52,148 bases of DNA from a virus (Duplodnaviria; Caudoviricetes), in the IMG/VR virus record IMGVR_UViG_3300037137_001787, positions 1 to 52,148 of that record, one strand, 5' to 3'. Below the pieces are notes generated by a model that saw nothing but the letters and a program-made list of their open reading frames with translations, was not told where the DNA came from and ran no database searches. The translations under genes were made by a program, and so were the position numbers. Every line of letters begins with the position of its first letter. Within the stretch, counting starts at the first letter, position 1. Positions 5,621 to 51,909 of the stretch are shown in pieces.

Positions 5621-6082
5621 TCAGTTCACCTTATTCCTGCATTCTTTATCGTACCCTCTACACCAGCCATTACCTTCATTATCATATGGTCTGGTCATAT
5701 CGGGTTGTATGAATGTAACGGTTTTTATTCCTGCTTTCTGGTTCTCAATCTTCCTGAGCCATTCACGGAGTTGCTGGTAATTTTCCCTATTTCGCCCGCT
5801 ATTCGTATGATGGATAACAGCATCCTCAAGAGTATCCATAGTCCATCTATCTCTACTTCCTGCATCGTATGCAGTCAGGGAAACTTTGACAACTTCATAT
5901 TCGCTCATATGTTCTCCCGTCCTGAGTTCAGGAGGGATGTATGCGCTTGCTGTAAATGCAAGCATTATTATGGTGAGTATCACCATTAGTTTCTTGTTCA
6001 TTATTTCACTGCTCCAAATGTTGTTAACAGCCATGTTGTAAGTATGACTGTAATCAGACTTAGCACTATGGGTACAATCCAC
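5621..6082 (-). CDS. Hypothetical protein with signal peptide (true start probably MNKKLMVIL, ~6001)
   Basis: ORF in operon with a signal-like segment. Confidence 0.55.
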   Translation of the reverse strand: MDCTHSAKSDYSHTYNMAVNNIWSSEIMNKKLMVILTIIMLAFTASAYIPPELRTGEHMSEYEVVKVSLTAYDAGSRDRWTMDTLEDAVIHHTNSGRNRENYQQLREWLRKIENQKAGIKTVTFIQPDMTRPYDNEGNGWCRGYDKECRNKVN

Positions 6083-6294
6083 ATTGCTCCGGCAATCTTA
6101 TGGCGCCAATCGCAAAGTGTTGTAATCTCTTTTTTGTGCTCGTCAAGTCTTGAATGAGCTTTATTTGCAATAACTTCAATATTGTCAAATTGTACTTTCC
6201 AATATTTATCCTGGGATTCGGCTCTTTCTTTGAGATTATCATCCATTCTATCTAATCTGTCAAGAATCGCCCGAAGTTCTGAACTTTCTGACAT
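6001..6294 (-). CDS. Coiled-coil plus C-terminal TM protein (holin/XhlA-like)
   Basis: Coiled-coil N-terminus and a single C-terminal TM helix. Confidence 0.55.
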   Translation of the reverse strand: MSESSELRAILDRLDRMDDNLKERAESQDKYWKVQFDNIEVIANKAHSRLDEHKKEITTLCDWRHKIAGAMWIVPIVLSLITVILTTWLLTTFGAVK

Positions 6295-6647
6295 TATGCA
6301 TTCGCCTTCTTCACAGAATAATTTGAAGATGTTGCTGCTGCTTCTTCTTCGATTGTCTCGAATACAAGTGCTTTTGCTGCTAATCTTAGATTCTCTGCTT
6401 TCTTATCGAGACTATAATATTTTGCACCGGATTCTCCCGGAAGACCGCCAGTAAGATGTAATCTTTCGTACCATCCAGCCTTGGATAATAATGATGATGA
6501 TGCTTTCGTTACTGTTGTTGTCAGTGAGTACATATCAATCCATCCCTGTATCTCGCGTTCAGCCTGATCGATGATTTCCTGAAGTATTGTATCTGCTTCA
6601 GCAGTTCCTACCTGCTTCCTGAATTCAGCTACTGAAAGTGTACTCAA
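6294..6647 (-). CDS. Head-tail connector (gp6/gp15-like adaptor)
   Basis: LSVAEFRKQVG...DTILQEIIDQAEREI pattern, downstream of the MCP. Confidence 0.65.
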   Translation of the reverse strand: MSTLSVAEFRKQVGTAEADTILQEIIDQAEREIQGWIDMYSLTTTVTKASSSLLSKAGWYERLHLTGGLPGESGAKYYSLDKKAENLRLAAKALVFETIEEEAAATSSNYSVKKANA

Positions 6648-6892
6648 TCGCCTACCTCCGGTCTTTTTCTAATATCGATCTTATTTGATTTCGGGATTGA
6701 ATTTGTATCGACGGGCGCATTGTCGATTTTATAAGTATCTGGATCATTGATACCCAATCCTTCTATTGTTATGTGCAAATCATCAAGTCCATATAATCCA
6801 GTAGTTGCTATTCCTGATGAATCTTTTAATGCTCGCTCACGCTCTCTCTGCCATGCTCCTGAAAGTTCCTTCTCTGATTGTGCTGTGATCAT
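6644..6892 (-). CDS. Hypothetical virion-module protein
   Basis: ORF translationally coupled within the head operon. Confidence 0.55.
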   Translation of the reverse strand: MITAQSEKELSGAWQRERERALKDSSGIATTGLYGLDDLHITIEGLGINDPDTYKIDNAPVDTNSIPKSNKIDIRKRPEVGD

Positions 6893-6897
6893 ATATA

Positions 6898-7284
6898 TTA
6901 AATTACATAGACTATTACAGATATTGTTGCTGCTGCTCCTGTTTGTGCGTTCGTTGCGGTTGCTTGGAATGTTATATTCCCTGCAACTACAATACCGTGC
7001 GGCGTTGCTGCTGCAACCATTCCAACATCTAATGTCTTTGCTCCTTCTGCCACTGATGCTTTTGAGTAATGAGATGTCCCGTCTGCATCAAGAACCGCAA
7101 TTGTCACGGTGGTTGTGCCAACAAGCGCAGGAACATCATAAATCATTTTAACGATTCTTCCGCATACTTCTTGGGATGTACTTCCAACCGTCCCTTCCGC
7201 TGCAATTGTAATCGGAATTACCCGTTGTCCGACTGGATATATTGGGTCTCCTCTTTTATCTTCTGTGGTCAATACTGTTACCAT
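6898..7284 (-). CDS. Putative structural beta-rich protein
   Basis: Immediately after the MCP, with a GAGGTG RBS. Ala/Thr/Val-rich. Confidence 0.6.
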   Translation of the reverse strand: MVTVLTTEDKRGDPIYPVGQRVIPITIAAEGTVGSTSQEVCGRIVKMIYDVPALVGTTTVTIAVLDADGTSHYSKASVAEGAKTLDVGMVAAATPHGIVVAGNITFQATATNAQTGAAATISVIVYVI

Positions 7285-7344
7285 ATTTTCACCTCATAAA
7301 AATAAAAACAGAAAGAGAGAATTATCCCTCTTCCAAGTTCAACC

Positions 7345-8454
7345 TTATGAAGTCCAGTGGTAATGAGCGGATGCCGCAGGATGCAGATAGTTCACATCGC
7401 AACGCATAGTTGCAGTCAGTGTATGTAGTTCTTTCTCAATATCATCGAACTTATTCACTGTTGTATCTCTGCGCATTGCAATACCAAATGCTCGCTTTGC
7501 TTCCATGACCACAAGACCCACATCGTTCGAGTCCACGTATGCCCAGGGATTTGTTCCATCAACTGTGGTACTGCCGTTGTCAGTAATGAATATATTCAAT
7601 CCATACACATTTTTTGGCAGTCTTCCAGTACGGATGACCTCAGAACCGCCCGCATAGTTCGCATATGCAAGTTGGTCCTTGTGCATCAGATCATGTTCAA
7701 CAACACTCGTTATAATGGCTGTATCTGGGAAGAACCCTGCTTTACGGATGGTATTAACACAGTCAAGCATTGCAGCCAATGATCCACCGGCTGTATTTGC
7801 GCCTGCTGTGGTGATTGACCCTACACCAGTTCCATTGGTGATGAGTGCTGTCAGAGAGTCGTAATTGAGTTTGTTCTCAATCGCTGCGCCCGCAAAGAAG
7901 ATTTCTTCTGCAACTACATCAACAAGCCCATCCTCAACCATCTCGTATGATATCCTGGGTTTCATACCGTATTTCACGATACTGAAATCCCTATATCCAT
8001 ACTCCTGTGTTCTATCAGGTATTGGCGCGCCTTCACTGACTACAGGTGCGTTTACCTGTGCTTCTCCGAGAGGGACACGAAGAGCATTTGATTTGGTCTG
8101 GTACATCGCCACTCCAGCATTACGGAACACTTTCATTTTATCCGCTCCTGCTAAGACCGTCCTCAACACCTCTTCGTTCAGAAGTGAGGTCGATGCGATA
8201 CTTTCTGTCAATAACAGTTCGGCTGCCGGATATCTGGTTGCATCAGGTTCATCGTTCAGGAATGCGTCTATCTTGGATGCACCAAGTTGTGCCGGAAGTC
8301 CAAGAACAAGTTTTCTTCTCTGTCTGTTCCCATACTTCTCTCCTTTAATATCGAGTTGCGCTATTTCAAGCATTTTTGAAAGTGTTGCAACGTGAGGATC
8401 GTTTGACGCAGGTCTATACTGCATTGGTTCCACATTAATTGATTTTTCACTCAT
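7345..8454 (-). CDS. Major capsid protein (HK97 fold)
   Basis: APVVSEGAPIP, KYGMKPRISYEMVEDG and YGLNIF motifs. 369 aa, located after the protease and decoration genes. Confidence 0.9.
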   Translation of the reverse strand: MSEKSINVEPMQYRPASNDPHVATLSKMLEIAQLDIKGEKYGNRQRRKLVLGLPAQLGASKIDAFLNDEPDATRYPAAELLLTESIASTSLLNEEVLRTVLAGADKMKVFRNAGVAMYQTKSNALRVPLGEAQVNAPVVSEGAPIPDRTQEYGYRDFSIVKYGMKPRISYEMVEDGLVDVVAEEIFFAGAAIENKLNYDSLTALITNGTGVGSITTAGANTAGGSLAAMLDCVNTIRKAGFFPDTAIITSVVEHDLMHKDQLAYANYAGGSEVIRTGRLPKNVYGLNIFITDNGSTTVDGTNPWAYVDSNDVGLVVMEAKRAFGIAMRRDTTVNKFDDIEKELHTLTATMRCDVNYLHPAASAHYHWTS

Positions 8455-13927: not shown

Positions 13928-15274
13928 CAAGGGGTTAGAGAAAACCCCGCGCCTTTAGGCCGGGGATGAATCGTACCCCTTGGAATTGTAATACCTGTCC
14001 CAAAATAGCAATTGTCGAGAAAGCACGAAAGGACAGGCAAAGGATAATAAAGTATTAAAACAATATAAAGATGTCGAGTAAAACATGAAAAAAACATTCC
14101 AATTCAGGATATACCCAAACAAGAATCAAGAAGTAGCCCTGAACAGAACACTTTCTACATGCAGACGACTCTATAATGATTCTCTTGCTGAACGAAAACG
14201 GCAAGCTGAACTTAACGAACTTGAAAGGACATTCGATGTAACTCCGTGGGGTAAACCCGAATGGTTAAACTACTACGATCAAGCCAATAGTCTATCGGGT
14301 TCAAAGACCGTCTTCCAGAAAGACGTATTCTCTCAGGTCTTACAAAACGTCTTGAAAAGAGTCGAAAGAAGCTTTAAGAATTTTTTTAATGGCTTTGGCT
14401 ACCCCCGTTTTCAGGGAAGAGAAAGGTATAATAGTTTTACCTTTCCGCAATCTGGCTTCAAAATCGAAGATGGAAAACTCAATCTCTCGAAAATAGGAAA
14501 CATTAAGATAGTCCTGCATCGTGAAATTGAAGGCATAATCAAAACCTGTACCATCAAAAAGGATATTGATCAATGGTATGTTTCCTTCTCATGCGAAATC
14601 GACATACCCATAATTCCTGTTGAGGTCAAGACCGAAACAGGCATAGACGTTGGATTGAAATCCCTGATAACCATGAGCAACGGTTGCCAGATTGAGCCTC
14701 CCGAATTTCTAAGAGTATCAGAAAAGAAGCTAACCCGCGAACAGAAGCGACTAAGTCGGAAAAAGAAAAGATCACAAAACAGGAACACCCAGAGAATCGT
14801 AGTAGCAAAAGTACATCGAAGGATCAGGAATCAGAGAAAAGATTTTGCTCATAAGATAAGCAGGAAACTTGTTACTGAATATGATCATATTGTGTTTGAG
14901 GATTTGCAGATACAAAACATGGTTAAGAACTATCGTCTTGCTAAATCCATATCAGATGCAGGATGGTCACAGTTAATCAATTTCACAAAAACCAAAGCAG
15001 AATACGCTGGGAAGATAGTTGAATTGGTTAATCCAAGAAATACAAGTCAGAATTGTAGCAGTTGTGGTAATTCAGTCAAAAAAGACCTATCTATGAGGAT
15101 ACACAGTTGTCCCTTTTGTGGTCTTGTTCTGGATAGAGATCATAATGCTGCAATTAATATCTTAGGACGATCAAATAGTACGGTAGGAATTACCGGAATT
15201 AACGCCCGTCAAGGACTTTCAATAGAGAGCCGATGCAGCGGGACGCCCCCAGCCTTTAGGCGGGGGTAATTCAC
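13928..15274 (+). mobile_element. IS200/IS605-family element 1 (TnpB only)
   Basis: Left-end hairpin ccccgcgcctttaggccgggg. Right-end hairpin cccccagcctttaggcggggg followed by taattcac (ends TCAC). Confidence 0.85.
14085..15269 (+). CDS. tnpB: TnpB RNA-guided nuclease
   Basis: FRIYP HTH, RuvC GIDVG / VFEDL / DRDHNAAINI, and a CxxC..CxxC Zn finger. Confidence 0.95.
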   Translation: MKKTFQFRIYPNKNQEVALNRTLSTCRRLYNDSLAERKRQAELNELERTFDVTPWGKPEWLNYYDQANSLSGSKTVFQKDVFSQVLQNVLKRVERSFKNFFNGFGYPRFQGRERYNSFTFPQSGFKIEDGKLNLSKIGNIKIVLHREIEGIIKTCTIKKDIDQWYVSFSCEIDIPIIPVEVKTETGIDVGLKSLITMSNGCQIEPPEFLRVSEKKLTREQKRLSRKKKRSQNRNTQRIVVAKVHRRIRNQRKDFAHKISRKLVTEYDHIVFEDLQIQNMVKNYRLAKSISDAGWSQLINFTKTKAEYAGKIVELVNPRNTSQNCSSCGNSVKKDLSMRIHSCPFCGLVLDRDHNAAINILGRSNSTVGITGINARQGLSIESRCSGTPPAFRRG

Positions 15275-15575: not shown

Positions 15576-15611
15576 GTGAATTACCCCCGCCTAAAGGCTG
15601 GGGTAATTCAC
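15576..15611. repeat. 36-bp palindromic solo IS605 right end
   Basis: gtgaattacccccgcctaaaggctggggtaattcac. 15576-15603 is the exact reverse complement of 15247-15274. Confidence 0.9.
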
Positions 15612-16229
15612 TCCCCATGCCTTCTTAATACCAATAATAGACTTCTTAATTAAGCACTTAGAATCTAAATCAGATGGTATCCATTTCATATCCCAATATT
15701 GTTTTGATAATCTTGCTATTTTAATATAACTATTACCATCAAGACTTTTTATATTCTTGAAATATGTTTTGTACCATAATTGTTTGCTTGGACTCCCCCC
15801 TAATAAATGAATGTTATAATTACAAATGTCCCAAGTCGCCAATCCCTCTGTTCCTCCATAGCTTGTAGGAATTGAAAAACCAATCATAAATTTTCTTTCA
15901 ATTCTTTCAATTATATCTTTACATTTTGGTATTATTATTACATTCTGAGAATATTGTCTTAACTCCTCTGCCAAATCTAAAATAGTATCTAAATCCGATT
16001 CGTTGAATATATCAGGAGCACAAACATATTTTGGTTTGATAAGTTTGCACAGTTGTAGGTGTTTTTCGATATCCGGTTTTTTATATGCAAAATCAAGAAA
16101 TTGAAGATTGTATTTCGTTCTTAGAGAATTAGCAGCATGTGTATTCGCTCCACATAGTATTTTAGTTTCGACTGCAATATCTAAATATTTTGGTTTGTCG
16201 ATACACATAATTAAATCTATTTTGTGCAT
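15591..16229 (-). CDS. TGT/DpdA-like TIM-barrel protein (DUF6610-like), putative deazaguanine transglycosylase
   Basis: FLD, APD, IHLLGG and SLDGNS motifs resemble TGT-fold enzymes. Coupled to queF. Confidence 0.6.
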   Translation of the reverse strand: MHKIDLIMCIDKPKYLDIAVETKILCGANTHAANSLRTKYNLQFLDFAYKKPDIEKHLQLCKLIKPKYVCAPDIFNESDLDTILDLAEELRQYSQNVIIIPKCKDIIERIERKFMIGFSIPTSYGGTEGLATWDICNYNIHLLGGSPSKQLWYKTYFKNIKSLDGNSYIKIARLSKQYWDMKWIPSDLDSKCLIKKSIIGIKKAWGVNYPSL

Positions 16230-16630
16230 ATTATCTCTGTTAAAATCCCACCACGAACATTAACTTTTAAGCGAAGTTCACAACTATCAGGTTTTACTGC
16301 ATCACAAAAATCCTTCAATACTTTTTGTGCAAGATGTTCATGAAGAATGCCTATTTCTTTATAAACTGATAAATACATTTTCAAGCTTTTCAATTCCGGG
16401 ATATTTCTAAATGGGACATATTTAAGATGTAACTCATAAAAATCAAGTAACCCAGTCATAGGACATAATGCAACAAGTTCTGTTGTACTATAGATTATTT
16501 CCGTTTTTTCTATTTGTATATATTCGAGTATAGCTATACTATATATGTTCTTTTGCATTACTTCATTCTGTTGTTTATTAACGTCTTGCAACGGCATATC
16601 TTCAATATGTTTTACAGTTTCTTTATCCAT
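16217..16630 (-). CDS. queF: QueF 7-cyano-7-deazaguanine (preQ0) reductase
   Basis: Catalytic LCPMTG..D, QueF signature ELKSLKMY, HE motif and C-terminal RGGI. Confidence 0.88.
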   Translation of the reverse strand: MDKETVKHIEDMPLQDVNKQQNEVMQKNIYSIAILEYIQIEKTEIIYSTTELVALCPMTGLLDFYELHLKYVPFRNIPELKSLKMYLSVYKEIGILHEHLAQKVLKDFCDAVKPDSCELRLKVNVRGGILTEIICTK

Positions 16631-17016
16631 ATATTTAATTCCCTTTTTCTTCCTTTAACTGTTTGTATTAGTTCGAAACCAAGATGTTTATAAAAACCAT
16701 TACTAAAGTTATCAACAGGGCATTTCAATTTAATGATAGTACGATTAAGAATTAGGGATTGTCTTACTAATTCATTTATTAATTCCTTCCCGTATCCCAT
16801 TTTTTGATATTCGGGTAATATCATCAATTCGTATATTGTTGTTTGTTGATCTCTCTTTCGATGATAGAAATGTAAAAACCCAATGATTCTTTCATCTTTC
16901 TTTTGAATAATTATTCTTTTTTCATTAATTGCCTTTTCAAGAATTCTTGTAGTAACAAAACCAATATCTTTTTTACACGAATCGGCAATTTTCTTAAGTT
17001 CTTCGAGGCATGTCAT
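16612..17016 (-). CDS. GNAT acetyltransferase
   Basis: IYELMILPEYQKMGYGKELI (acetyl-CoA motif A) and N..SNGFYKHLGF. Confidence 0.9.
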   Translation of the reverse strand: MTCLEELKKIADSCKKDIGFVTTRILEKAINEKRIIIQKKDERIIGFLHFYHRKRDQQTTIYELMILPEYQKMGYGKELINELVRQSLILNRTIIKLKCPVDNFSNGFYKHLGFELIQTVKGRKRELNIWIKKL

Positions 17017-17029
17017 TTTTTTTTAACCT

Positions 17030-17079
17030 ATGCGTCCGTTCGTAGATGCCTCGAAATTATATTCCGAGGTCGTGGTCAC
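17030..17079 (+). repeat. Solo IS605 right-end-like hairpin, ATGCG...GATGCCTCG-loop-CGAGGTCGTGGTCAC
   Basis: Same family as the reverse complement of 35779-35830. Ends in TCAC. Confidence 0.75.
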
Positions 17080-17114
17080 AATGATAATATACCACACATG
17101 CAACGGGTCAATTC

Positions 17115-19161: not shown

Positions 19162-19551
19162 ATGAGTATATGGCAAGGTATCCCGAAAACAACAGAAAAG
19201 AGTAAACGATCACAATATCTAGAAAAATCAATAACAGAACGATTTTATACACATTTTGTTAAAGGAAATAAAGATGATTGTTGGATATGGAATGGCTCAT
19301 TACATAACGGATATGGTATTTTTGTGTATAATTATGTTCGGATATATGCTTATAGATATTCTTATACTCTAAAATATGGCGCCTTCCCTGAAAATATGTT
19401 AGCATGTCATGCATGTAATAATAGAAGATGTGTGAATCCAGATCACATCTACCCTGGAACGCCTGCGGAAAATCAGCAAGACCAATCATTTAGACCACAC
19501 GCAAACCCTCATAGATTAAAAACTTATAAAGTCAAAAGGATAACTATTTAA
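19162..19551 (+). CDS. HNH endonuclease (phage HNH_3 type)
   Basis: CWIWNG...GYG...YRYSY...CHACNNRRCVNPDHIYPGTPAENQQD. Confidence 0.9.
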   Translation: MSIWQGIPKTTEKSKRSQYLEKSITERFYTHFVKGNKDDCWIWNGSLHNGYGIFVYNYVRIYAYRYSYTLKYGAFPENMLACHACNNRRCVNPDHIYPGTPAENQQDQSFRPHANPHRLKTYKVKRITI

Positions 19552-26352: not shown

Positions 26353-26793
26353 ATGAGCAAACAAGAACACTGGATAAGCGGCAGAGGTTGTGTTTACAAC
26401 ATCAACTATCATATGGTATGGAGTACCAAATACCGTAAAAAGGTGTTGATAGGTGATATTGTGGATTACTTGAAACAATTACACGAACAGATTGCAGGTG
26501 AAAAAGGTATAATATTGAGAGAACAAGAGGTAATGCCTGACCATGTTCATCTGTTCATAACAGCTCATCCTAAATATTCGCCATCTCAGATCGTAAAAAT
26601 CTTTAAAGGAATTACAGCAAAAGAACTATTTGAAAAATTCCCTATACTGAGAACCAGAATGTATAATAGGGGACATCTCTGGAACCCAAGCTATTATTGC
26701 GGTACTATGGGCGATGTGACAAAGGATATAGTTCTAAAATATATTGAAATGCAGAAGGTCAAAGATAAAAATGATATTCCAGAAATCTCTTAA
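26353..26793 (+). CDS. tnpA: IS200/IS605 Y1 HUH transposase TnpA
   Basis: YHMVWSTKYRKK, DHVHLF (HUH), LWNPSYY and KYIEMQ (catalytic Tyr). Confidence 0.95.
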   Translation: MSKQEHWISGRGCVYNINYHMVWSTKYRKKVLIGDIVDYLKQLHEQIAGEKGIILREQEVMPDHVHLFITAHPKYSPSQIVKIFKGITAKELFEKFPILRTRMYNRGHLWNPSYYCGTMGDVTKDIVLKYIEMQKVKDKNDIPEIS

Positions 26794-28051
26794 AATCCCT
26801 ATTCATTACGATACAACAAACACCAAAATAGGTATACTGGATAGGCTAACAGCAAGAATAACATATTGTATTATGCTTATTTCAGGACTCATTACTGATG
26901 AAACAGAGATAGATAGAAAAACAATACGAAAAATAGTCAAAGATAACGATATCGCATCAAAAACGGGTTTGTCAGCAGGTTTCATAGATCAGTGTATAGA
27001 TAAGGTCGTCTGGTCATGGAAATCGTATAAGAAACTTCATAATGATTGGGAAAAGAAGGTCAATCGAGCAGAGGAAAGAATAACATCATCAAGAGATGAT
27101 AAAGAAAAAGAGAAAAGAGAGAAATCATTTGACAAACTACTCAAAAGAGAACCATCAATACCTGCGTTTGAAGAAAAGACTCCATGCAGGATAGATTACA
27201 GAACAGGAAACATGCAGTGGGGAAAGGGTAAATTTTCACCATTGTGGATCCGTATATCCACACTGGAGAAAAACAAAAGAATAGATATTCCTTTAAATCC
27301 ATCTCAGTATCATCTGAACCAGCTTCAGAATGCTGAAATAGATGATTTTGAGATCATAAAGCTAAACAATAAATATTACGTTCATATTTCTATCACGAAA
27401 GTGGTAGAGGATAAACCAATAAGATCCATCGGAGGTATAGATCAGGGTCTGAACAGATCCATAGCAGTCGTACTGCTGGAAACACCTGTACCTCGTGAAG
27501 AGCTTTTATTGGATGCAGTAAAGAGAGATCTTCTGGATAAGTACGATAATATAATATCATCGTTACAGGAATCCGGGAAATGGGATAAACTCAGAGAACT
27601 CAGGAACAAAAGAAGTAACGTATCAACATACCATGACTGGTGTCTTGCAAACGAAGTAGCTGACTTCACCGAAGGTTCTCTGATAGCTATAGGTAACACT
27701 CCATTCAGACAGACCCAGTTCAGAGGTAATGGCATGCCCACACTACGAAAACGAATCGGTAAGTGGAGTTATGGTAGACAGAGGATGTTCATAGCTCTGA
27801 AGAGAGCTGAACGTGGTTATTCCACAAAACTAAGAGAAGAAAGGAACACGTCACGAGAATGTCATTGCTGTGGCTCGTTGCTCACCACACGAAAATGGTC
27901 AGATGGCAGTTCATATATCCTCTGTCATTCCTGCGGAGTGAAAGAGGATGCTGATATCAATGCTGCATACAATATAGCTTTTCGATGCCAGGATGACTGG
28001 CTGAAAGTGCAGATGAACATGATAGGAGAAAAACCTCATGCGAGTGCATAA
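26744..28051 (+). CDS. tnpB: Divergent TnpB with rearranged RuvC-II (start probably MIFQKS, 26771)
   Basis: GIDQG, IAIGN in place of the E-motif, EERNTS, CHCC..CHSC and DADINAAYNIA. Confidence 0.85.
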   Translation: MKCRRSKIKMIFQKSLKIPIHYDTTNTKIGILDRLTARITYCIMLISGLITDETEIDRKTIRKIVKDNDIASKTGLSAGFIDQCIDKVVWSWKSYKKLHNDWEKKVNRAEERITSSRDDKEKEKREKSFDKLLKREPSIPAFEEKTPCRIDYRTGNMQWGKGKFSPLWIRISTLEKNKRIDIPLNPSQYHLNQLQNAEIDDFEIIKLNNKYYVHISITKVVEDKPIRSIGGIDQGLNRSIAVVLLETPVPREELLLDAVKRDLLDKYDNIISSLQESGKWDKLRELRNKRSNVSTYHDWCLANEVADFTEGSLIAIGNTPFRQTQFRGNGMPTLRKRIGKWSYGRQRMFIALKRAERGYSTKLREERNTSRECHCCGSLLTTRKWSDGSSYILCHSCGVKEDADINAAYNIAFRCQDDWLKVQMNMIGEKPHASA

Positions 28052-29560: not shown

Positions 29561-29959
29561 ATGTGCAAAGGACTTGCAGTTATAACGGAAAAAATCAAAG
29601 ACGAATGGAAAGTGTACGCAAAACAGGGCGAATCATCACATGACAAAATACTTCATGAACAACGGGACGATTTACGATTTGGAAAAGCACCCCATCTCAA
29701 ATTTGAAGTATTATTTCCTGTCAGAGTTCAAGATAATATTCAACAGGATTGCGAATATCCAACTGGATGGATAGAACTTCAGTGGGGTAAGAAAGTTGCA
29801 TGTAAGGACGCATTCTTCGCAGTTTTCAAGCATTTGCGTGATAATCCTGAGTTGCTTGAGTTCATGCCAAGTATGTTTCAAGAGGCTGACCTGAGTGGGG
29901 CTGATACAAAAGGAACGATCTTTCCTGAAAAGTTCAAAAGCCCAGAGGTGAAATCATGA
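29561..29959 (+). CDS. Hypothetical protein with a vestigial pentapeptide repeat
   Basis: MCK..A N-terminus, SH motif and EADLSGAD near the C-terminus. Confidence 0.55.
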   Translation: MCKGLAVITEKIKDEWKVYAKQGESSHDKILHEQRDDLRFGKAPHLKFEVLFPVRVQDNIQQDCEYPTGWIELQWGKKVACKDAFFAVFKHLRDNPELLEFMPSMFQEADLSGADTKGTIFPEKFKSPEVKS

Positions 29960-31476
29960 ATGTAGACCAACAGTCCGTGATCAAATCCTTGCTCATCAAG
30001 CGAGGATATAAAGAATCCGGCATTACAAAGGGTTGGTTTTTCACAGAGGATGGTAGCGACAGGGCTGCCGACTTGCGGAAAGCCAAGCCGATCATCGGTA
30101 TTCTGATATCGGGCAACATAGTCACTGAAGGGCATGGAAATCTCAAAATTCTGGACGATATCCAGGAAGTTGAAGCGATCATGCGTGCTGGGCACATCAG
30201 CGGAAACGAGGGCGTTCTAAAGTCTGACACTCCTGACACTCCTGACACTTCAAAGAAAGGCACTACCACAGCGATATGCGAAAGGTGTAAGCTCCAATTC
30301 AATGTTACAAATGTAGATCAGGCGCAAAAAATCATAGAACAGTATGGTAAGTTATTCTGTCTGAAATGCCAGAGTTCCCCTCCTACAATGGATAGCAAGA
30401 TTGAACTGCCGAAAAACAACGCAAAGCCCGATTCAAGAATTGTAACCAAGAACTGTAAATCGTGCGGTCTGGAATTGTCAGGCGCCAGGGCGTTATACTG
30501 CTACCAGAAAGAGAAACCGTTCACATGCGAGGATTGTTATGAAAAAGAATATAAGGAAACGGAAAAGGGAAAAGATGCGACGATTGAGAAACGTGAAGCC
30601 AGACCCGAAGAATCAAAGATAATTCGCCAGCCGGACGCAAGGATACCAATACAAACACACACTCAACAGGGCGGCAGTATTATCAAAGGATTCCAACCAT
30701 CCCTAAAAGAGATTGGCAAAATCAAAATAGGCAGCAAGGGTGAAGAAAAACCAAAAGCAGGAGGCGGCACATTCCGATTGCCCGTAAAATTCGATCACTT
30801 TGAGATCGTATCCCTTGTACGAAATGAGAAAGGAGATTTCATCAAAGATCCGGTAATGCAGTTGCTTGGCGAGAACCCGAAAGAACTTGATATAATGTTG
30901 CTGTTCAACGAACCGACACTGAACTTCATTACCCGATACAATCAATATCAGGGCGGAAAATGTCTTTGTCAGGGCGATGGAGCAACGGCAAAACAAATAG
31001 ATGGCGCACAGGTAGAATGCAACCCAGATACCTGCCCACAGTTCGCTCAAAAGAAATGCAAGCCAAATGGTATCCTGTCAGTAATCCTCACGAAATCCCC
31101 CCGGCTTGGCGGCGTGTACAAATTCAGGACAACATCGTTCAATAGTATTAGATCAATACTATCCTCGCTATTCTTCCTCAGCAACCTTACAGGCGGCGTT
31201 CTGGCGATGATCCCATTGAAATTGACAGTATCCCCTATGCAGGTTCAACCGAAGGATTCTGCGAAGCCACAGACAATCTTCGTGGTAAATATTGAGTTCT
31301 CAGGAACCGCACCTGAATTGCTACAAAAGACGTTTGAAGTACATACCTATCAGAAAGATATGAGGGAACATATTATCAAGCTCGAAAGCACAGCACGTGC
31401 AGCACTGACCGCGCCAGAGAGCAAGGAAGAAATCAATGAGATAGAAGCTGAGTTCTATCCGAAGCAGGAGAAATGA
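29956..31476 (+). CDS. Recombination protein: Zn fingers plus a Gp3/RDF-like C-terminal domain
   Basis: EIGKIKIG, CQGDG, CKPNGILSVIL and GGVYKFRTTSFNS, with several CxxC pairs. Confidence 0.65.
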   Translation: MNVDQQSVIKSLLIKRGYKESGITKGWFFTEDGSDRAADLRKAKPIIGILISGNIVTEGHGNLKILDDIQEVEAIMRAGHISGNEGVLKSDTPDTPDTSKKGTTTAICERCKLQFNVTNVDQAQKIIEQYGKLFCLKCQSSPPTMDSKIELPKNNAKPDSRIVTKNCKSCGLELSGARALYCYQKEKPFTCEDCYEKEYKETEKGKDATIEKREARPEESKIIRQPDARIPIQTHTQQGGSIIKGFQPSLKEIGKIKIGSKGEEKPKAGGGTFRLPVKFDHFEIVSLVRNEKGDFIKDPVMQLLGENPKELDIMLLFNEPTLNFITRYNQYQGGKCLCQGDGATAKQIDGAQVECNPDTCPQFAQKKCKPNGILSVILTKSPRLGGVYKFRTTSFNSIRSILSSLFFLSNLTGGVLAMIPLKLTVSPMQVQPKDSAKPQTIFVVNIEFSGTAPELLQKTFEVHTYQKDMREHIIKLESTARAALTAPESKEEINEIEAEFYPKQEK

Positions 31477-31998
31477 TTGCTCTTGGTACTTTTTTCGTTC
31501 AGTATCTCATCGATGATTGACCTTATCAAAACGGGAGAAAAAACGCAAACCACCCGTGTCCCGCGCAAGCTAAAGAAGAACGGCGAACCTGCGTACAAAA
31601 TCGGTGATAAGGTGCAGTTGTACTACAAGTCACGGATGAGAAACAAATGTGAAAATTGCATAGTAGTATCTCCACCAAACCCGTGTGGATTATATAATGA
31701 TGATATTATTGATTATTGTTTCCATTACACGAACTTCTTCGGCGAATCTGAGATAATCGATATTATCCATTATCATCATAGTGATTATAAAGAACAGTAT
31801 CATGAAGTGTGGATGGGATACACTCTCGCATTAGCGGGCAAAGAAGATATGGATGCATGGGCAATCGCTGATGGGTTTCCGAACGGATATATTCAGGCTC
31901 ACGATTTCTTCAAATCAATTAATCCGAATTGGGCAGACCAGAACCTTGACGTGATTGTGTGGTCAAAAGATCAGATTATTGCGAGGTGGCAGAAATGA
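31477..31998 (+). CDS. ASCH/PUA-like domain protein
   Basis: IKTGEKTQTTR...GDKVQLY...AIADGF. Confidence 0.7.
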   Translation: MLLVLFSFSISSMIDLIKTGEKTQTTRVPRKLKKNGEPAYKIGDKVQLYYKSRMRNKCENCIVVSPPNPCGLYNDDIIDYCFHYTNFFGESEIIDIIHYHHSDYKEQYHEVWMGYTLALAGKEDMDAWAIADGFPNGYIQAHDFFKSINPNWADQNLDVIVWSKDQIIARWQK

Positions 31999-32660
31999 AC
32001 AAAACAAAAATCGAATGGACAGATTATGTCTGGAATCCTGTTACTGGATGTGAACACCAATGTCCATACTGCTATGCCCGAAAGATGGCAAACAGATTAA
32101 AAGGAAGATATGGATATCCAGTCGATGAACCATTCAAGCCGACGTTCCATGAACTAAAATTATGGGATACTTTTCCAAAGAGACCATCCAAGATATTTGT
32201 CTCATCGATGGGGGATCTTTTCGGTGAGTGGGTAACAGCTGAATGGATTAATCGGGTTTTGGACGTAGTTAGAATAAATTATAAGCATACCTTCATATTT
32301 CTCACAAAGAACCCGAAGAGATACTCGGAGTTTGACTTTCCCAAGAATGCATGGATTGGATATAGTACGACGGGGACACTACACCATAAATGGGATGAAC
32401 GACATAATGACAACATTAAATTTGTAAGTATAGAACCAATGAAAGAGCCCCTGAATATAAGGTTAAATGGATATGCGCAAGCGATAAACTTTGATTGGTT
32501 GATAGTTGGAAAAGAGACCGGAAACCGCAAAGGAAAATATTTGTTTGTTAATGAATGGCTTGACGATGTTCAAGACTTTACATCTAAAATGGGAATTCCG
32601 TTATTCGTAAAAGATAACATCGGTAAGTGGGAACAACAATTTCCAGAGGCGATATCATGA
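31995..32660 (+). CDS. DUF5131 (phage Gp37/Gp68) radical-SAM-like protein
   Basis: KTKIEWTD..WNPVTGC...CPYCYA, IFVSSMGDLF, LTKNP and SIEP. Confidence 0.88.
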   Translation: MNKTKIEWTDYVWNPVTGCEHQCPYCYARKMANRLKGRYGYPVDEPFKPTFHELKLWDTFPKRPSKIFVSSMGDLFGEWVTAEWINRVLDVVRINYKHTFIFLTKNPKRYSEFDFPKNAWIGYSTTGTLHHKWDERHNDNIKFVSIEPMKEPLNIRLNGYAQAINFDWLIVGKETGNRKGKYLFVNEWLDDVQDFTSKMGIPLFVKDNIGKWEQQFPEAIS

Positions 32661-32817: not shown

Positions 32818-33102
32818 ATGAATATGGAATGCCCGTTTTATAAATTAGGTGAAAACATTAGACCAGAGATATTGTTTTTTGCTGAGCAGATGGAAAAGGT
32901 TATGAAAAGCCATGATGCTGATAAAGGCGATTCATGGAAATGCATGACAAATAAACAATTACTTACATTATTAAAAAATGAATACACTGAAGCTAAAGTT
33001 GGAATATTTACAAAAGAATATATTGATGTTGCCAATATTTGTATGATGCTTTTCTGGAATGGATGCAAACAATCTAACTGGAATCTTCCTGAAACGGAGT
33101 AA
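32818..33102 (+). CDS. MazG-like nucleotide pyrophosphohydrolase-type protein
   Basis: FAEQMEKVM..D..KG.SW...EYIDVANICMM. Confidence 0.55.
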   Translation: MNMECPFYKLGENIRPEILFFAEQMEKVMKSHDADKGDSWKCMTNKQLLTLLKNEYTEAKVGIFTKEYIDVANICMMLFWNGCKQSNWNLPETE

Positions 33103-33121
33103 AATGAATCAAAAGCAAATC

Positions 33122-34401
33122 GTAACTTTAACTCCCCACTATAAAGTGGGGAGCATTATCACTATGTTCAGCATCAATTCCCTTACGGGCTTCGGCTTCA
33201 TCACACGCAATGTATGGCTGAGTTACAGGCAACCTACTATCCTGAGATTTACCCAAGATAGCAATGTTTCTGGCAGCATTGAGGTCAGCATGGAGTTGAA
33301 AACCACACTTAACACAATTGAAAGAATGTCCTTTCCGGTTTCCTTTGTAGATATGTCCGCAGTTAGAACATTTCTGACTGGTATATCTGGGATCAATCAT
33401 TACAACCGTTTTTCCAAGAGCTTCAGCTTTATATTTCAAAAACTGTTCAAGTTCATAGAAAGCCCAGTTATTAAGTTTTCTCGTAAACTCAACTCCTTTT
33501 GTTCTGCTCTGAACTCTTATGCTGGTCAAATCTTCAATAGCAAATATATCATAGGGCATAGTTACAATTTCCTTAGAGATATTATGATTGATCCAAGTTA
33601 CAAACTGTTGTTCCTTCCGAGAAATCTTCCTGAGAAGCTTCTTAGCGGATTTAGTGCCTTTGGCTTGGAGTTTCGCTCTAAGATATGCGTACTTTGCTCT
33701 TACGTTTTTGACAGGTTTACTATTGAAAAAATGATTGTTAGAAGTTACAGCAATATTGACTATTCCTCTATCTATCCCAAGAACCTTATCGCCAACAGGT
33801 TCAGGAGATTGTTTCTTGATAGTTACATGCAAGTAAAAGGTATCCTGCTGTTTGTTATAGGAAAGTGTAGAAGTTCGAAGTTCCCAGGTAAGATATTGCC
33901 TGTAATATTCAGGAATCGGGAAAGTTGCTTTTACTCTGCCTTTAGTAGTAGCGAGGGTAACGACTTGCCTGGAAAGATTGATATTGCAAACTCTTTTATT
34001 ATATCGGATAGCGGAATATTGCTTACTCTTCGGCAGCTTCTTAAGTTCGACTCCTTTAAGAGCTTCGCAGGCAACATCTCTAACCCCCTGGAGAATAGCA
34101 CAGGGAAGTTCAGGATACTTTCCCCGGATATCGTAATAAGTAGCATGGTGAATAGATACTTTGCTGCAAGTATGGTTCTCAAAACCGTATTGAGCAATCA
34201 TATTAAAAACGTGATTACTCAATGTCATGGTAAGTCGGAGAGTTTCTTTATCGTACTCAGACAAATCCAGCTTAAGTTTAATCGTTCTATCCACACTCAT
34301 ATATTACAACGTATAACCTTAAATAGTTTGGGGTATGTTGATATTATAAAGCGGGGTATGCTCCTCCTCGGACTTGAAGTCCGAGGTATCCGCTACCCCT
34401 G
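33122..34401 (-). mobile_element. IS200/IS605-family element 3 (TnpB only)
   Basis: Left-end hairpin cctcggacttcaagtccgagg, right-end hairpin ctccccactttatagtggggag. Removing 33122-34401 restores the ORF MNQKQI|HPTEDTMKLKD. Confidence 0.85.
33128..34300 (-). CDS. tnpB: TnpB (Cas12f-like)
   Basis: GIDRG / AIEDL / HADLNAARNI, TSQKCSNCG and CVKCG. Confidence 0.93.
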   Translation of the reverse strand: MSVDRTIKLKLDLSEYDKETLRLTMTLSNHVFNMIAQYGFENHTCSKVSIHHATYYDIRGKYPELPCAILQGVRDVACEALKGVELKKLPKSKQYSAIRYNKRVCNINLSRQVVTLATTKGRVKATFPIPEYYRQYLTWELRTSTLSYNKQQDTFYLHVTIKKQSPEPVGDKVLGIDRGIVNIAVTSNNHFFNSKPVKNVRAKYAYLRAKLQAKGTKSAKKLLRKISRKEQQFVTWINHNISKEIVTMPYDIFAIEDLTSIRVQSRTKGVEFTRKLNNWAFYELEQFLKYKAEALGKTVVMIDPRYTSQKCSNCGHIYKGNRKGHSFNCVKCGFQLHADLNAARNIAILGKSQDSRLPVTQPYIACDEAEARKGIDAEHSDNAPHFIVGS

Positions 34402-34700
34402 CACCCCACGGAGGACACAATGAAACTCAAGGATGCACTTATCCTCGCCAAGAAGCGAACCGCAGAAACAAATACCAAAAAGTACCTGCAACGGTATTAT
34501 CAGGAACGAAGGATGAATATGCAATAAGGAGAACGAGACAATGAGCATCCCTAACAGGTTCTGCAACGAATGCGGCGCGCAGGTCCAGACAGTAGATGTG
34601 GAGATCAGGAACTCTGAGACGAAATGGGCAGCGCTGACCGTCATGCAGGGTGTATGCATTGTTTGCGGAAAAACAATGACGTTCGGGGCGTGAAAGGGAA

Positions 34701-37502: not shown

Positions 37503-38330
37503 ATGATGAAATATGAAAAGGAATGGGACGTGGTATCTGATAAACTTCATGATTGGAATCCAGATGTCGAACCTTGCATTGCGGATATGCGAATCTTGAG
37601 GGCTGTTAGATACATTGCATACACAAAAAAGGACGCTGTTATTTTAGACATTGGGTGTGGTGAAGGGGATTTGCTAAGACTATTATTTAAAATGGGTTAC
37701 AAAAATTTGACGGGTACTGAAATATCAGAACGGCGGATATCTGTCGCAAAAGAAAAGAACGAGGATATCAACTATATGCATTCTAATAATCTCATGGATT
37801 TCGATAACGAAAGTATAGATACACTAATCTCAACAGGAGTAATTGAGCATCTTGAAAACCCTGAAGAATTTATATCAGAATGTAGCAGAATACTAAAGCC
37901 AAATGGACAATTAATAATCACGACAAATTGCTATTTTTGGCGAGTTCAAAAAGCATTGGGATTATATAGAACGGTAATGCCTATCGATGATGCTCCATTT
38001 CCCACAACTTTAATCAATTGGGGAAAGAAAAACGGTCTTGATATAGTGCATTATGATGCATGGGGTTCTTTTCTATTTCACCCATACTTTGCCATCACAA
38101 ATGTAATGTCGATTATTATTCCAAAATTCATTAAACAGTATTTTATTTCGACATACGAAAAAGGATTAACCACAACATACAATCCTAAGAAAGAAGAACA
38201 TTTATTTTTACAATCAGTGCCGATTTCTCTCAAAACAAGTAAGTTGGCAATTTTAAAATGTATATTCCTGATAGATGATATATTTTATTTTCAAAAGAAA
38301 TTGCGGCATGAATTCATTACCAGTGTTTGA
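37503..38330 (+). CDS. Class I SAM-dependent methyltransferase
   Basis: ILDIGCGEG, GVIEHL and RILKPNG. Confidence 0.88.
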   Translation: MMKYEKEWDVVSDKLHDWNPDVEPCIADMRILRAVRYIAYTKKDAVILDIGCGEGDLLRLLFKMGYKNLTGTEISERRISVAKEKNEDINYMHSNNLMDFDNESIDTLISTGVIEHLENPEEFISECSRILKPNGQLIITTNCYFWRVQKALGLYRTVMPIDDAPFPTTLINWGKKNGLDIVHYDAWGSFLFHPYFAITNVMSIIIPKFIKQYFISTYEKGLTTTYNPKKEEHLFLQSVPISLKTSKLAILKCIFLIDDIFYFQKKLRHEFITSV

Positions 38331-50506: not shown

Positions 50507-51909
50507 GTGACATCCTCCCCCCCCCTGAAGGGACGGGGCTTCCTGTTTCGTTGATCGGGCTTGCTATGTTCGACATAGTATCGGCTCGATCTCCACAGGC
50601 GTAAATTCGGTACTGTCCGTACCTACATTCTTGCATTTGCCTCTATTTTCTATTAGTATTGCTGAAACGTGATCCCTGTTGAGTACAAGACCACAGGAAG
50701 GACATGAGTGTATCCTTACTGACAGGTCTTTAGGTACAGGATATCCACAAACACATGTCTGTGACGTTCCATTAGGATTGACCTGAATGACTGATTTCCC
50801 AGCTTCTTCCGCTTTGGATATCGTCATCCTGATCAACTGACCCCAACCAGCATCCGAGATACTCTTAGCAAGACAATGATTCTTGACCATGTTATTGATA
50901 TGTAATTTCTCGAATACGATCCGGTCAAAATTATTAACAAGCATTCTGCTTGTCTTATGAGCAAAATCTTTTCTCTGGTTCCTGATTTTCCTGTGCACTC
51001 TGGCTACCTTGATCCTCTGTTTATTTCTGTTCTTTGATCTGAGTTTCTTTTTTGATAGTTGTCTCTGTTCATGGATGAGTTTCTCTTCTGACAATCTCAG
51101 GAACTTCGGGGGTTCTATCTGGTCTCCATTACTCAAGGTCAAAAGAGATTTCAAACCAACATCGATGCCTATTATGGTTTCTACAGGAATCTTCTTGATC
51201 TCTCGATCTATTTCGGTTGTGAATATCACATACCACTGATCCACATCCTTCTTGATGGTACATGTCTTGATCTTCCCTTCAATTTCCCTGTGTAAGAATA
51301 TCCTGATGTTACCTATCTTCGACAGGTTGAGCTTTCCATCCTCGATTCCAAACCCTTTTTGTGGATACGTAAACGTATTATATCTATTTCTTCCTTTGAA
51401 ACGGGGATAGCCATTTCCTCCAAAGAAATTCAGAAAACTTCTATCCAGTCTCTTCAGGACGTTCTGCAGAACTTGTGAGAATACTTCTTTCTGAAAAGGG
51501 GTTTTCGATCCGGGAAGATCGTTTGCCTGATCTTCATATTTTATCCATTCCGGTTTTCCCCATGGAATTATTCCAAAATCCCGTTCGAGATTGTTTAGTT
51601 CTGCTTCTCTTCTTCGTTCTTCCAGAGCATCATTGTAAAGATGACGACATGTGGAAAGTGTTCTGTTCAGTTTAACTTCCTGATTCTTGTTCGGGTATAT
51701 CCTGAACTGGTATGCTTTCTTCATGTTATCAGTCTCCGTAATATCTATATTGTTTCGATGCATTATATAGTTTATGCCCGTCCCGTAATCAGTCTTCGCA
51801 AACTGTTTTTCCGGGACGGGTATTATTATTTTCATGGTTTTCTATCGCCGTTATGAGTGGGGGTACGATTCATCCCCGCCCTGAAGGAACGGGGTTTTCT
51901 CTACCCCTC
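50507..51909 (-). mobile_element. IS200/IS605-family element 4 (TnpB only), relative of element 1
   Basis: Left end aggggtagagaaaaccccgttccttcagggcggggatgaatcgtacccc is nearly the same as in element 1. Right end gaagccccgtcccttcaggggggggaggatgtcac. Confidence 0.85.
50564..51724 (-). CDS. tnpB: TnpB RNA-guided nuclease (start MKKAYQF at 51724)
   Basis: GIDVG / VFEKL / NRDHVSA and a Zn finger. Clearly homologous to 14085-15269. Confidence 0.93.
   Translation of the reverse strand: MKKAYQFRIYPNKNQEVKLNRTLSTCRHLYNDALEERRREAELNNLERDFGIIPWGKPEWIKYEDQANDLPGSKTPFQKEVFSQVLQNVLKRLDRSFLNFFGGNGYPRFKGRNRYNTFTYPQKGFGIEDGKLNLSKIGNIRIFLHREIEGKIKTCTIKKDVDQWYVIFTTEIDREIKKIPVETIIGIDVGLKSLLTLSNGDQIEPPKFLRLSEEKLIHEQRQLSKKKLRSKNRNKQRIKVARVHRKIRNQRKDFAHKTSRMLVNNFDRIVFEKLHINNMVKNHCLAKSISDAGWGQLIRMTISKAEEAGKSVIQVNPNGTSQTCVCGYPVPKDLSVRIHSCPSCGLVLNRDHVSAILIENRGKCKNVGTDSTEFTPVEIEPILCRT

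Follow-up and report, generated by a model that had tools for sequence, protein, structure and literature searches.

A family of small GNAT acetyltransferases was found to be a widespread partner of the transglycosylases associated with 7-deazaguanine bases in viral DNA. The securest gain of our analysis is this conserved and often fused acetyltransferase-transglycosylase pair, for which we count no fewer than 49 loci and 56 fusion clusters, and we consider it very likely that the two enzymes are functionally coupled. Viral 7-deazaguanine DNA modifications are a main route of escape from restriction enzymes, with eight derivatives known, and the cassette described here points to acetylation as a further tailoring step. 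The new part is the GNAT as a widespread transglycosylase partner; that DpdA4 and QueF give dPreQ1 has already been published for HVTV-1. We tentatively read the cassette as a three-gene DNA-hypermodification (anti-restriction) system of an archaeal tailed virus that includes acetylation of the preQ1 amine, a reading that seems to us nearly as likely to be right as wrong.

The window (the whole 52,148-nucleotide stretch analysed, a 52-kb IMG/VR record) is the complete genome of a tailed virus. The virus is archaeal, and its host is probably a Methanoperedens-like archaeon. The cassette consists of three overlapping minus-strand genes in the order GNAT-QueF-DpdA4, with overlaps of 19 nt between the end of GNAT and QueF, and of 13 nt between the end of QueF and DpdA4. 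The original prediction had described three overlapping, AT-rich genes, and it holds on both counts: the ORF list gives the same positions, and the operon has a GC content of 29.7%, against 40.3% for the genome, which places it within the lowest 0.2% of equal-sized windows and makes it the most AT-rich island of the genome. Upstream of GNAT, a 98-nt A/T-rich spacer (17017..17114, minus strand) contains the TATA-like boxes tatattat and aatataat, as well as an AGGT ahead of the GNAT ATG, and by its sequence is a possible archaeal-type promoter for the cassette. Six-frame searches of the complete record gave no QueC, PTPS/QueD, GTP cyclohydrolase I or TGT, consistent with the earlier view that the virus has no folE or queCDE genes, and there were no DpdB- or DpdC-like genes in the window. 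The sole radical-SAM match from the six-frame search was weak (17.3 bits) and fell inside a gene that matches DUF5131 at 3.4e-40; this gene was rejected as a QueE candidate. As an archaeal virus that encodes no preQ0 genes, the window virus would rely on preQ0 from its host, as had been proposed.

Pfam matches bear out the identities first assigned to QueF and GNAT. The 137-aa unimodular QueF (16217..16630, minus strand) matches PF14489 (4.1e-17, 62.6 bits; cut-off 27.3) and scores 81.4 bits against the NCBIfam equivalog TIGR03139, just below the cut-off of 86.9. Its closest solved structure is B. subtilis QueF (4F8B, E 1.1e-10) rather than the archaeal QueF-like 5JYX (2.1e-5), as expected for a reductase and not a QueF-like amidinotransferase. 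Residues C56, D63 and H97-E98 align with counterparts in 4F8B, and we take them to be the thioimide nucleophile cysteine, the aspartate seven residues on and the His-Glu pair, respectively. The two enzyme types are separated by the NADPH motif E-(S/L)-K-(S/A)-h-K-(L/Y)-(Y/F/W), and the window protein carries E79-LKSLKMY86, the ELKSLKMY stretch (79-86) that had been singled out at the start. Thus, the window QueF is of the reductase type and is predicted to convert preQ0 to preQ1. Among control genomes, QueF matches were found in none of the four archaeal and seven of the ten bacterial ones.

The third protein (212 aa; 15591..16229, minus strand) had been described as TGT-like, with a possible relation to DUF6610. 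Both motifs quoted for it, HLLGG (141-145) and SLDGNS (162-167), are present, and it belongs to DUF6610 (PF20314, 4.3e-41, 141.2 bits; cut-off 27), the family renamed DpdA4 by Hutinet et al. (2023; PMC10516641), and is a putative DNA guanine transglycosylase. By tblastn it is 29-33% identical to homologues in HF1/HF2- and HVTV-like haloviruses (E 1e-17 to 4e-22), and D73, H141-LLGG145 and D164 are invariant in the family. When 123 DpdA4 domains were aligned with five host TGTs by hhalign, the match was weak (E 0.031, probability 1.6%), and in this weak alignment D73 and D164 coincide with Asp positions of TGT that are presumably catalytic. The alignment of DpdA4 with a GNAT-fused TGT-like family gave E 0.003 and a probability of 10%; the DpdA4 profile found no hhalign match to two single sequences, the DpdA of phage R5C and a protein adjoining GNAT in a Thermocrinis virus, and a profile search of solved structures gave chance matches only (E ≥ 0.86). 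The published HHpred comparison relates DpdA4 to PF01702 at 92.5%; the same report also treats 7-deazaguanine insertion into DNA by DpdA4 as an inference, and relates that attempts to obtain a working DpdA4 in E. coli were unsuccessful (Hutinet et al., 2023; PMC10516641). DpdA4 is fused to DNA methylases at L043 (a C5 DNA methylase) and L030, and DNA methylases lie beside it at L092 and G001. Contrary to the earlier view, the family is not confined to archaeal viruses but is common in bacterial phages and prophages; among 401 Chloroflexota genomes, DUF6610 was matched in a single one, which was already known.

The first gene of the cassette (16612..17016, minus strand; 134 aa) encodes a member of the classical acetyl-CoA-dependent GNAT family, judging from its matches to PF13508 (6.3e-12), PF00583 (8.6e-12) and PF13673, all above cut-offs. 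The acetyl-CoA motif Q-x-x-G-x-G is present as Q71-KMG74-YG76, 30 family members show at least 90% conservation of G74 and G76, and the family alignment gives a further signature of K-C99-P, an invariant N106, F-Y109 and G113-F114. Cys99 of the KCP motif is nearly invariant, which is unusual in a GNAT. Background was low, with matches to only five of 50,697 phage records at E ≤ 1e-3. The best 150 representatives of the family are mostly stand-alone proteins.

We looked for a pairing of this family with DpdA4 across 129 non-redundant loci, which remained of 146 after 17 were dropped as duplicates or because they had no complete ORF. In 49 of these, GNAT and DpdA4 are no more than 3 kb apart. 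For the 48 loci with both matches, GNAT is upstream in 22, downstream in four, fused in ten and present as overlapping ORF calls in 12, and the two are on the same strand in every case and on opposite strands in none. The fusions occur in both domain orders and include one triple fusion, GNAT-DUF6610-C5 methylase. PF20314 is also present in 56 of the 59 longer database relatives of GNAT, and 28 of the best 150 representatives are 200 aa or longer; a scan of all 28 detected DUF6610 in 12 and the TGT domain PF01702 in one. The PF01702 domain of this fusion resembles host TGTs (96% hhalign probability) and is 36% identical (E 4e-51) to the Thermocrinis-virus protein that adjoins GNAT (host taken from PMC7689252). 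In Dinoroseobacter phage vB_DshS-R5C (R5C) the gene order is QueC-FolE-QueF-x-DpdA-x-GNAT; among cultured phages, it alone was seen to combine this GNAT family with QueF and a DpdA. The same GNAT family is therefore adjacent or fused to two further transglycosylase families besides DpdA4. In the literature that we searched, the GNAT-DpdA4 pairing has no published description.

The combination with QueF recurs as well, in keeping with the expectation that the trio would be conserved: L091 has the same gene order as the window, L115, a sister to HVTV-like haloviruses, has QueF-GNAT-DpdA4, L030 has GNAT-DpdA4 together with QueF and a Vut_1 transporter and no QueC, and phage R5C has GNAT and QueF with its own transglycosylase. 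A first tblastn pass had suggested that no locus carried both GNAT and QueF, a result overturned by the metagenome scan and an iterated profile. The trio with QueF recurs independently. Against the preQ1 reading, GNATs with a QueF in their context are scattered across the GNAT tree, and viral QueF and QueC are missing from most GNAT-DpdA4 modules. QueF was absent from the fetched ~6-kb flanks of 45 of the 49 GNAT-bearing non-redundant loci; two loci had it within 3 kb, and L030 at ~4 kb (L094 and L095 are near-identical short copies of L093). The association of the GNAT family is with the transglycosylase rather than with QueF.

We propose the following order of events. QueF would use NADPH to reduce host-made preQ0 to free preQ1, as its family and conserved residues suggest, a reaction of which the archaeal host itself would be incapable. 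DpdA4 would then exchange guanines in the viral DNA for preQ1, giving dPreQ1, by homology to the HVTV-1 system. In the last and weakest step, for which context, chemistry and precedent argue, the GNAT might use acetyl-CoA to acetylate the 7-aminomethyl amine, either on DNA or on the free base ahead of insertion, and so form 7-(acetamidomethyl)-7-deazaguanine. The original prediction had insertion of preQ0 come before reduction, which is probably wrong; reduction probably precedes insertion, because phage QueFs reduce the free base and the DpdA associated with QueF inserts preQ1 (PMC10516641). That the cassette yields a preQ1-type base in DNA appears probable to us. We are more reserved about the preQ1 amine as the acetyl acceptor of GNAT, which we would put just short of an even call. 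It has precedent, given that methylated and formylated forms of dPreQ1 have been described (PMC10516641), and that a GNAT, gp48 of phage PaMx11, acetylates 5-aminomethyl-dU in DNA (PMC8989533).

A link of the GNAT to preQ1 is also indicated by the cassette itself, a single island of 29.7% GC in which QueF is placed between the other two genes and the stop and start codons overlap. To our knowledge, preQ1 is the sole intermediate of the pathway that bears a primary aliphatic amine. N-acetyl-preQ1 is the best single reading that we infer, and it is held with slightly less than balanced confidence, as QueF is mostly absent from GNAT-DpdA4 modules. More tentative still is the general model, in which N-acetyl-dPreQ1 would be the ninth 7-deazaguanine base to occur naturally in DNA, installed in many viruses of bacteria and some of archaea by GNAT-transglycosylase modules, adjacent or fused, that involve at least three transglycosylase families. 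Where a bacterial virus has GNAT and DpdA4 only, it could take preQ1 made by host QueF, and archaeal viruses would have to bring QueF. Both archaeal-context GNAT lineages (the window with L091, and L115) carry QueF, compared with only two of 11 bacterial-context lineages; the chance of both archaeal lineages carrying it is ~0.08 by a hand calculation on 13 lineages, with hosts assignable for only nine GNAT-bearing, QueF-lacking lineages (with Amidase_2 as the indicator of a bacterial host, only four of 35 GNAT-bearing records could be placed). Of two genomes that host GNAT-DpdA4 proviruses, one has QueF. Should the product be confirmed, a new natural base would be added to those of DNA, and the module, compact at one or two genes, would be a tool to derivatise DNA at selected sites.

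The alternative that survives best, doubtful but with a serious claim, is that the cassette makes plain dPreQ1, as in HVTV-1, and that the GNAT is a true transglycosylase partner with another acceptor. This acceptor could be an exocyclic amine on one of the other DNA bases, by Mom- or NAT10-like chemistry, DpdA4 or a protein of its complex, or a different incoming base prepared for insertion. In IMG/VR records, viral QueF accompanies GNAT in one of 35 cases and is found in 14 of 42 records without GNAT, the corresponding numbers for QueC over cut-off are 0 of 35 and 14 of 42, and eight of the nine GNAT-bearing viral records at least 90% complete have neither; the GNAT is thus negatively associated with viral QueF. 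The provirus host G078, a Thermoflexales MAG that is possibly incomplete, has a TGT, no detected QueF and no clear QueC. C5 and other DNA methylases are likewise found fused to DpdA4, so that its fusion with GNAT may do no more than link modifiers that work on DNA independently. Direct action on DNA bases is known within the GNAT superfamily (Mom; PMC7824862), and the near-invariant Cys99 of the KCP motif, unusual in a GNAT, may also count for this alternative. On the other hand, the three transglycosylase families linked to this GNAT have in common the reaction that they perform and the 7-deazaguanine that it yields, and the pairing therefore points to this product. QueF sits between GNAT and DpdA4 with overlapping codons in L091 as well as in the window and adjoins GNAT in L115, and L092, a close relative of the window whose DpdA4 is 76% identical, has neither GNAT nor QueF. 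In addition, small stand-alone GNATs are not known to acetylate exocyclic base amines, which are weak nucleophiles, unless ATP-dependent helpers assist.

We regard it as very improbable that the trio acts on RNA, for example by placing preQ1 or its acetylated derivative at position 15 or 34 of host tRNA so as to bias translation. TGT-family enzymes are classically tRNA enzymes and QueF is a member of the tRNA queuosine pathway; however, the canonical TGT is retained in all five host genomes, DpdA4 is fused to or beside the DNA methylases noted above, and the single DpdA4-encoding virus analysed has preQ1 at 30% of its DNA guanines (PMC10516641). Equally far-fetched is a GNAT unrelated to base modification, such as a host-takeover protein acetyltransferase travelling in a mobile AT-rich island: host proteins are a common target of acetylation by phage GNATs (PMC7824862), one family member in a 735-kb phage has no DpdA4 nearby and most of the best 150 representatives stand alone, but this would leave the covalent DUF6610 fusions in both orders (ten of 129 loci and 56 of 59 longer relatives), the shared strand in 48 of 48 loci and the recurrence with two more transglycosylase families without a reason.

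The window virus can be compared with several known systems. Like HVTV-1, which has DpdA4 (gp69), QueF and FolE/QueD/QueE/QueC (Hutinet et al., 2019, 2023; PMC10516641), it is an archaeal tailed virus with DUF6610/DpdA4 and a reductase-type QueF, for which preQ1 in DNA is the expected product. Unlike HVTV-1, it has no preQ0 genes and depends on the host, and it adds a GNAT that HVTV-like genomes do not have within the flanks examined; identity between the two DpdA4s is only about 30-33%. DpdM (methyl) and DpdN (formyl), which tailor dPreQ1 in Cellulophaga and Flavobacterium phages (PMC10516641), have the same role as proposed for the window GNAT, decoration of the 7-aminomethyl amine of preQ1 in viral DNA. 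The GNAT, with acetyl-CoA, differs from them in fold and cofactor, its product is a predicted one, and it usually occurs with the transglycosylase alone, whereas phages with DpdM or DpdN encode the whole preQ1 path.

PaMx11 gp48 is likewise a phage GNAT that acetylates a major-groove aminomethyl group on a base in polymeric DNA (PMC8989533). Its substrate, however, is a pyrimidine and not a 7-deazapurine, its partners are a kinase, an amino-acid transferase and a flavin lyase, and there is no close sequence kinship, PaMx11 being outside the five phage records matched by the window GNAT. Bacterial Dpd systems also combine a DNA transglycosylase with a dedicated partner protein and tailor the base after insertion, but there the partner is the DpdB ATPase and tailoring by DpdC is nitrile hydration to ADG. 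Finally, Mom of phage Mu is an anti-restriction DNA-base modifier of the GNAT superfamily that acylates adenine N6, in contrast to the window GNAT, which matches PF13508 and PF00583, has the Q-x-x-G-x-G motif and is tied to guanine transglycosylases.

The cassette comprises three overlapping minus-strand genes for a GNAT protein (17016..16612, 134 aa), QueF (16630..16217, 137 aa) and a DUF6610 protein (16229..15591, 212 aa). Pfam confirms all three families with scores well over the cut-offs, and the overlaps are 19 nt (GNAT/QueF) and 13 nt (QueF/DUF6610). The ORFs lie exactly where the original prediction had placed them, and the AT-richness it noted is confirmed: at 29.7% GC, compared with 40.3% for the genome, the cassette ranks among the 0.2% of same-length windows with the least GC and is therefore a compositional island.

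The view of QueF as a true reductase is also supported. The catalytic residues Cys56 and Asp63, the ELKSLKMY motif (79-86) and His97-Glu98 all align to Bacillus subtilis QueF (4F8B; E 1.1e-10), compared with a much weaker match to the QueF-like amidinotransferase (2.1e-5); the score against the NCBIfam equivalog, 81.4, is slightly below the cut-off of 86.9. We found no QueC, QueD/PTPS, GTP cyclohydrolase I or canonical TGT in the viral genome, where the sole radical-SAM signal (17 bits) lies inside a DUF5131 gene. Thus, as had been proposed, 7-deazaguanine synthesis must start from host preQ0. The predicted order of insertion followed by reduction did not hold up as well: free preQ0 is reported as the substrate of phage QueFs, and a QueF-associated DpdA as inserting preQ1 (Hutinet et al., 2023; PMC10516641). 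It is therefore likely that QueF would reduce host preQ0 to preQ1 first, and that the DUF6610 protein would then exchange a preQ1-type base into viral DNA. Very probably, the cassette modifies viral DNA with such a base derived from host preQ0.

The combination of a DUF6610 protein with QueF to give dPreQ1 DNA is an already known kind of system. The DUF6610 protein of HVTV-1, which has preQ1 in place of 30% of G in its DNA, was renamed DpdA4, with HHpred probabilities of 100% for PF20314 and 92.5% for TGT (Hutinet et al., 2023; PMC10516641). In our hands, an hhalign comparison of 123 DpdA4 domains with host TGTs yielded a weak match (E 0.03, probability 1.6%), which places the family-invariant D73 and D164 on TGT aspartate positions; a sequence search of solved structures found no DpdA4 relative. 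Published accounts treat DpdA4 as specific to archaeal viruses; here it is common in bacterial contexts (loci L081-L087, G001 and L093). It occurs in Chloroflexota, Acidobacteriota, Streptomyces and Meiothermus genomes, in phages with peptidoglycan-binding endolysins and in three Mycobacterium phage records, and its atlas clusters are 46-67% Bacteria. The range of DpdA4 extends beyond archaeal viruses. A weak DpdA4-like match in Mycobacterium phage Knocker (MZ150786.2, 682-1134; 25% identity, E 2e-5) falls within gene 1, whose annotation is that of a ParB-like nuclease domain protein.

We collected 146 DpdA4 loci, of which 77 came from viruses, 10 from genomes and 59 from metagenomes; removal of 17 duplicates or incomplete ORFs left 129 non-redundant loci. 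Searching with a profile iterated from the window GNAT, we found a family member at most 3 kb from DpdA4 in 49 of the 129: adjacent in 36, fused in 10, adjacent together with QueF in two, and in one with a DpdA4 ORF that was not re-detected. Among the 48 loci with both matches, the GNAT was upstream in 22, downstream in four, fused in 10 and in overlapping ORF calls in 12; in no case did the two lie on opposite strands. The domains of the fused proteins are found in either order, and one locus (L043, 5530-8019) encodes an 829-aa triple fusion of GNAT, DUF6610 and a C5 cytosine DNA methylase. In a large protein database, the GNAT profile has 59 longer relatives, and 56 of these carry PF20314. 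At E <= 1e-10 the family counts 748 representatives, and a domain scan of all 28 proteins of at least 200 aa among the best 150 of these found DUF6610 in 12, a canonical TGT domain in one (P0179) and ParB_N in one (P0153, a ParB_N-GNAT fusion). P0178 and P0179 represent a second fused architecture (~460-480 aa), with an N-terminal GNAT and a divergent C-terminal TGT-like domain bearing a Cys/His cluster. Against host TGTs, the P0179 domain reaches an hhalign probability of 96%, and it shares 36% identity (E 4e-51) with the protein whose gene immediately follows that of the GNAT in a Thermocrinis Great Boiling Spring virus, where the pair is split (L079, 3953-5130). The same GNAT family is found in the cultured Dinoroseobacter phage R5C, in the order QueC-FolE-QueF-x-DpdA-x-GNAT, and matches only five of 50,697 phage records overall. 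From these fusions and adjacencies, we infer that one GNAT family was recruited to three guanine-transglycosylase families. A functional partnership between the GNAT and the transglycosylase is almost certain. We found no description of this pairing in literature on DUF6610/DpdA4, deazaguanine acetyltransferases or acetylated preQ1, and neither "acetyl" nor "GNAT" occurs in the main text of Hutinet et al. (2023). This widespread, undescribed module and the broader range of DpdA4 are the most solid new content of our analysis.

The complete trio, whose conservation elsewhere had been suggested as a check, recurs in L091, L115, L030 and phage R5C. In the close relative L091, as in the window, QueF is wedged between GNAT and DpdA4 with overlapping codons (identities to the window of 78% for DpdA4, 59% for GNAT and 55% for QueF). 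The order in L115, whose DpdA4 is sister to the ~102-kb HVTV-like haloviruses, is QueF-GNAT-DpdA4. The third, L030, a complete 70-kb phage, carries GNAT-DpdA4, a second DUF6610 and QueF followed by an overlapping Vut_1-family, YhhQ-type membrane transporter (6019-6923). L030 has no QueC, and this pair points to the virus salvaging a precursor of queuosine. The second DUF6610 (6829-7929) runs on into an SPPF/DPPY-like methylase motif region, and its ORF leaves the locus end. In L092, another close relative, whose DpdA4 is 76% identical to that of the window, GNAT and QueF are both missing and their slot is filled by other ORFs, one with a DPPY methylase-like motif; the two genes were gained or lost together in this lineage.

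As for what the GNAT acetylates, the best single hypothesis, which we hold tentatively but find quite possible, is that it would act on a preQ1-type base to give N-acetyl-(d)preQ1. PreQ1 is the sole pathway intermediate with a primary aliphatic amine, and R5C combines the whole deazaguanine pathway with the GNAT. A phage GNAT, PaMx11 gp48, acetylates 5-aminomethyl-dU within DNA (PMC8989533), and methylation and formylation of dPreQ1 are already known (PMC10516641). Among GNAT lineages with an assignable host, QueF accompanies both of the archaeal-context lineages and two of the 11 bacterial-context ones (L030 and R5C). The lineages lacking it are G001 (PG_binding_1 endolysin), L093 (DnaG-type primase), G036, G053 and G066 (Amidase_2), a Chloroflexota MAG, an Acidobacteriota MAG, a cyanobacterial fusion protein and an Aquificae virus. 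The QueF family was found in seven of 10 bacterial and none of four archaeal control genomes. This pattern fits, if thinly and for the minority of loci with a host assignment, bacteria supplying preQ1 where archaea cannot; the chance of QueF in both archaeal lineages is ~0.08 by hand calculation, with most loci outside the host-assigned set.

Other observations count against preQ1 acetylation and favor the main rival, somewhat doubtful in our estimate, in which the GNAT is coupled to the transglycosylase but acts on another acceptor. Among whole viral records, QueF was found in one of 35 with the GNAT versus 14 of 42 without it, and QueC in none of 35 versus 14 of 42. Eight of nine complete GNAT-bearing genomes have neither gene. 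In the Thermoflexales MAG that hosts a GNAT-DpdA4 provirus, TGT was found, QueF was not and QueC was not clear, and QueF-context GNATs are scattered in a poorly resolved GNAT tree. Because DpdA4 has DNA methylases as fusion partners too, being fused is not by itself proof that two domains act in consecutive steps. The nearly invariant Cys99 ("KCP") and invariant Asn106 of the GNAT alignment count on this side as well. Family members fall into size classes of ~100 aa and ~125-145 aa; in the short form, the N-terminal ~30-45 residues present in canonical GNATs are missing.

The viral genome (52,148 bp) has 127-bp direct terminal repeats and is 100% complete by CheckV. It encodes a large terminase, portal, HK97-type capsid and tail tube, a D5-type primase-helicase and a short XPF-type nuclease (ERCC4+HhH2). 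The terminase shares 47% identity (E 7e-120) with its counterpart in Methanobacterium phage psiM2, and the capsid protein 58% identity with a capsid protein named from Candidatus Methanoperedens nitroreducens (3.3-Mb contig); on these matches and the nuclease, an archaeal, Methanosarcinales-like host is likely. Outside the cassette, there are an HNH_3 endonuclease (19162-19551, +), a class I SAM methyltransferase (Methyltransf_11; 37503-38330, +) and, at 29956-32660 (+), a 506-aa Gp3-like "recombination directionality factor-like" protein followed by the DUF5131 protein, whose N-terminus is weakly radical-SAM-like. The genome also carries four TnpB-like genes (OrfB_IS605/Cas12f-like TNB) and one IS200 TnpA, at 14085-15269 (+), 26353-28051 (+), 33128-34300 (-) and 50564-51835 (-). 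One TnpB lies directly downstream of the cassette in convergent orientation, and the copy at 33128-34300 is antisense inside a 454-aa ORF (33059-34423, +) without a Pfam match.
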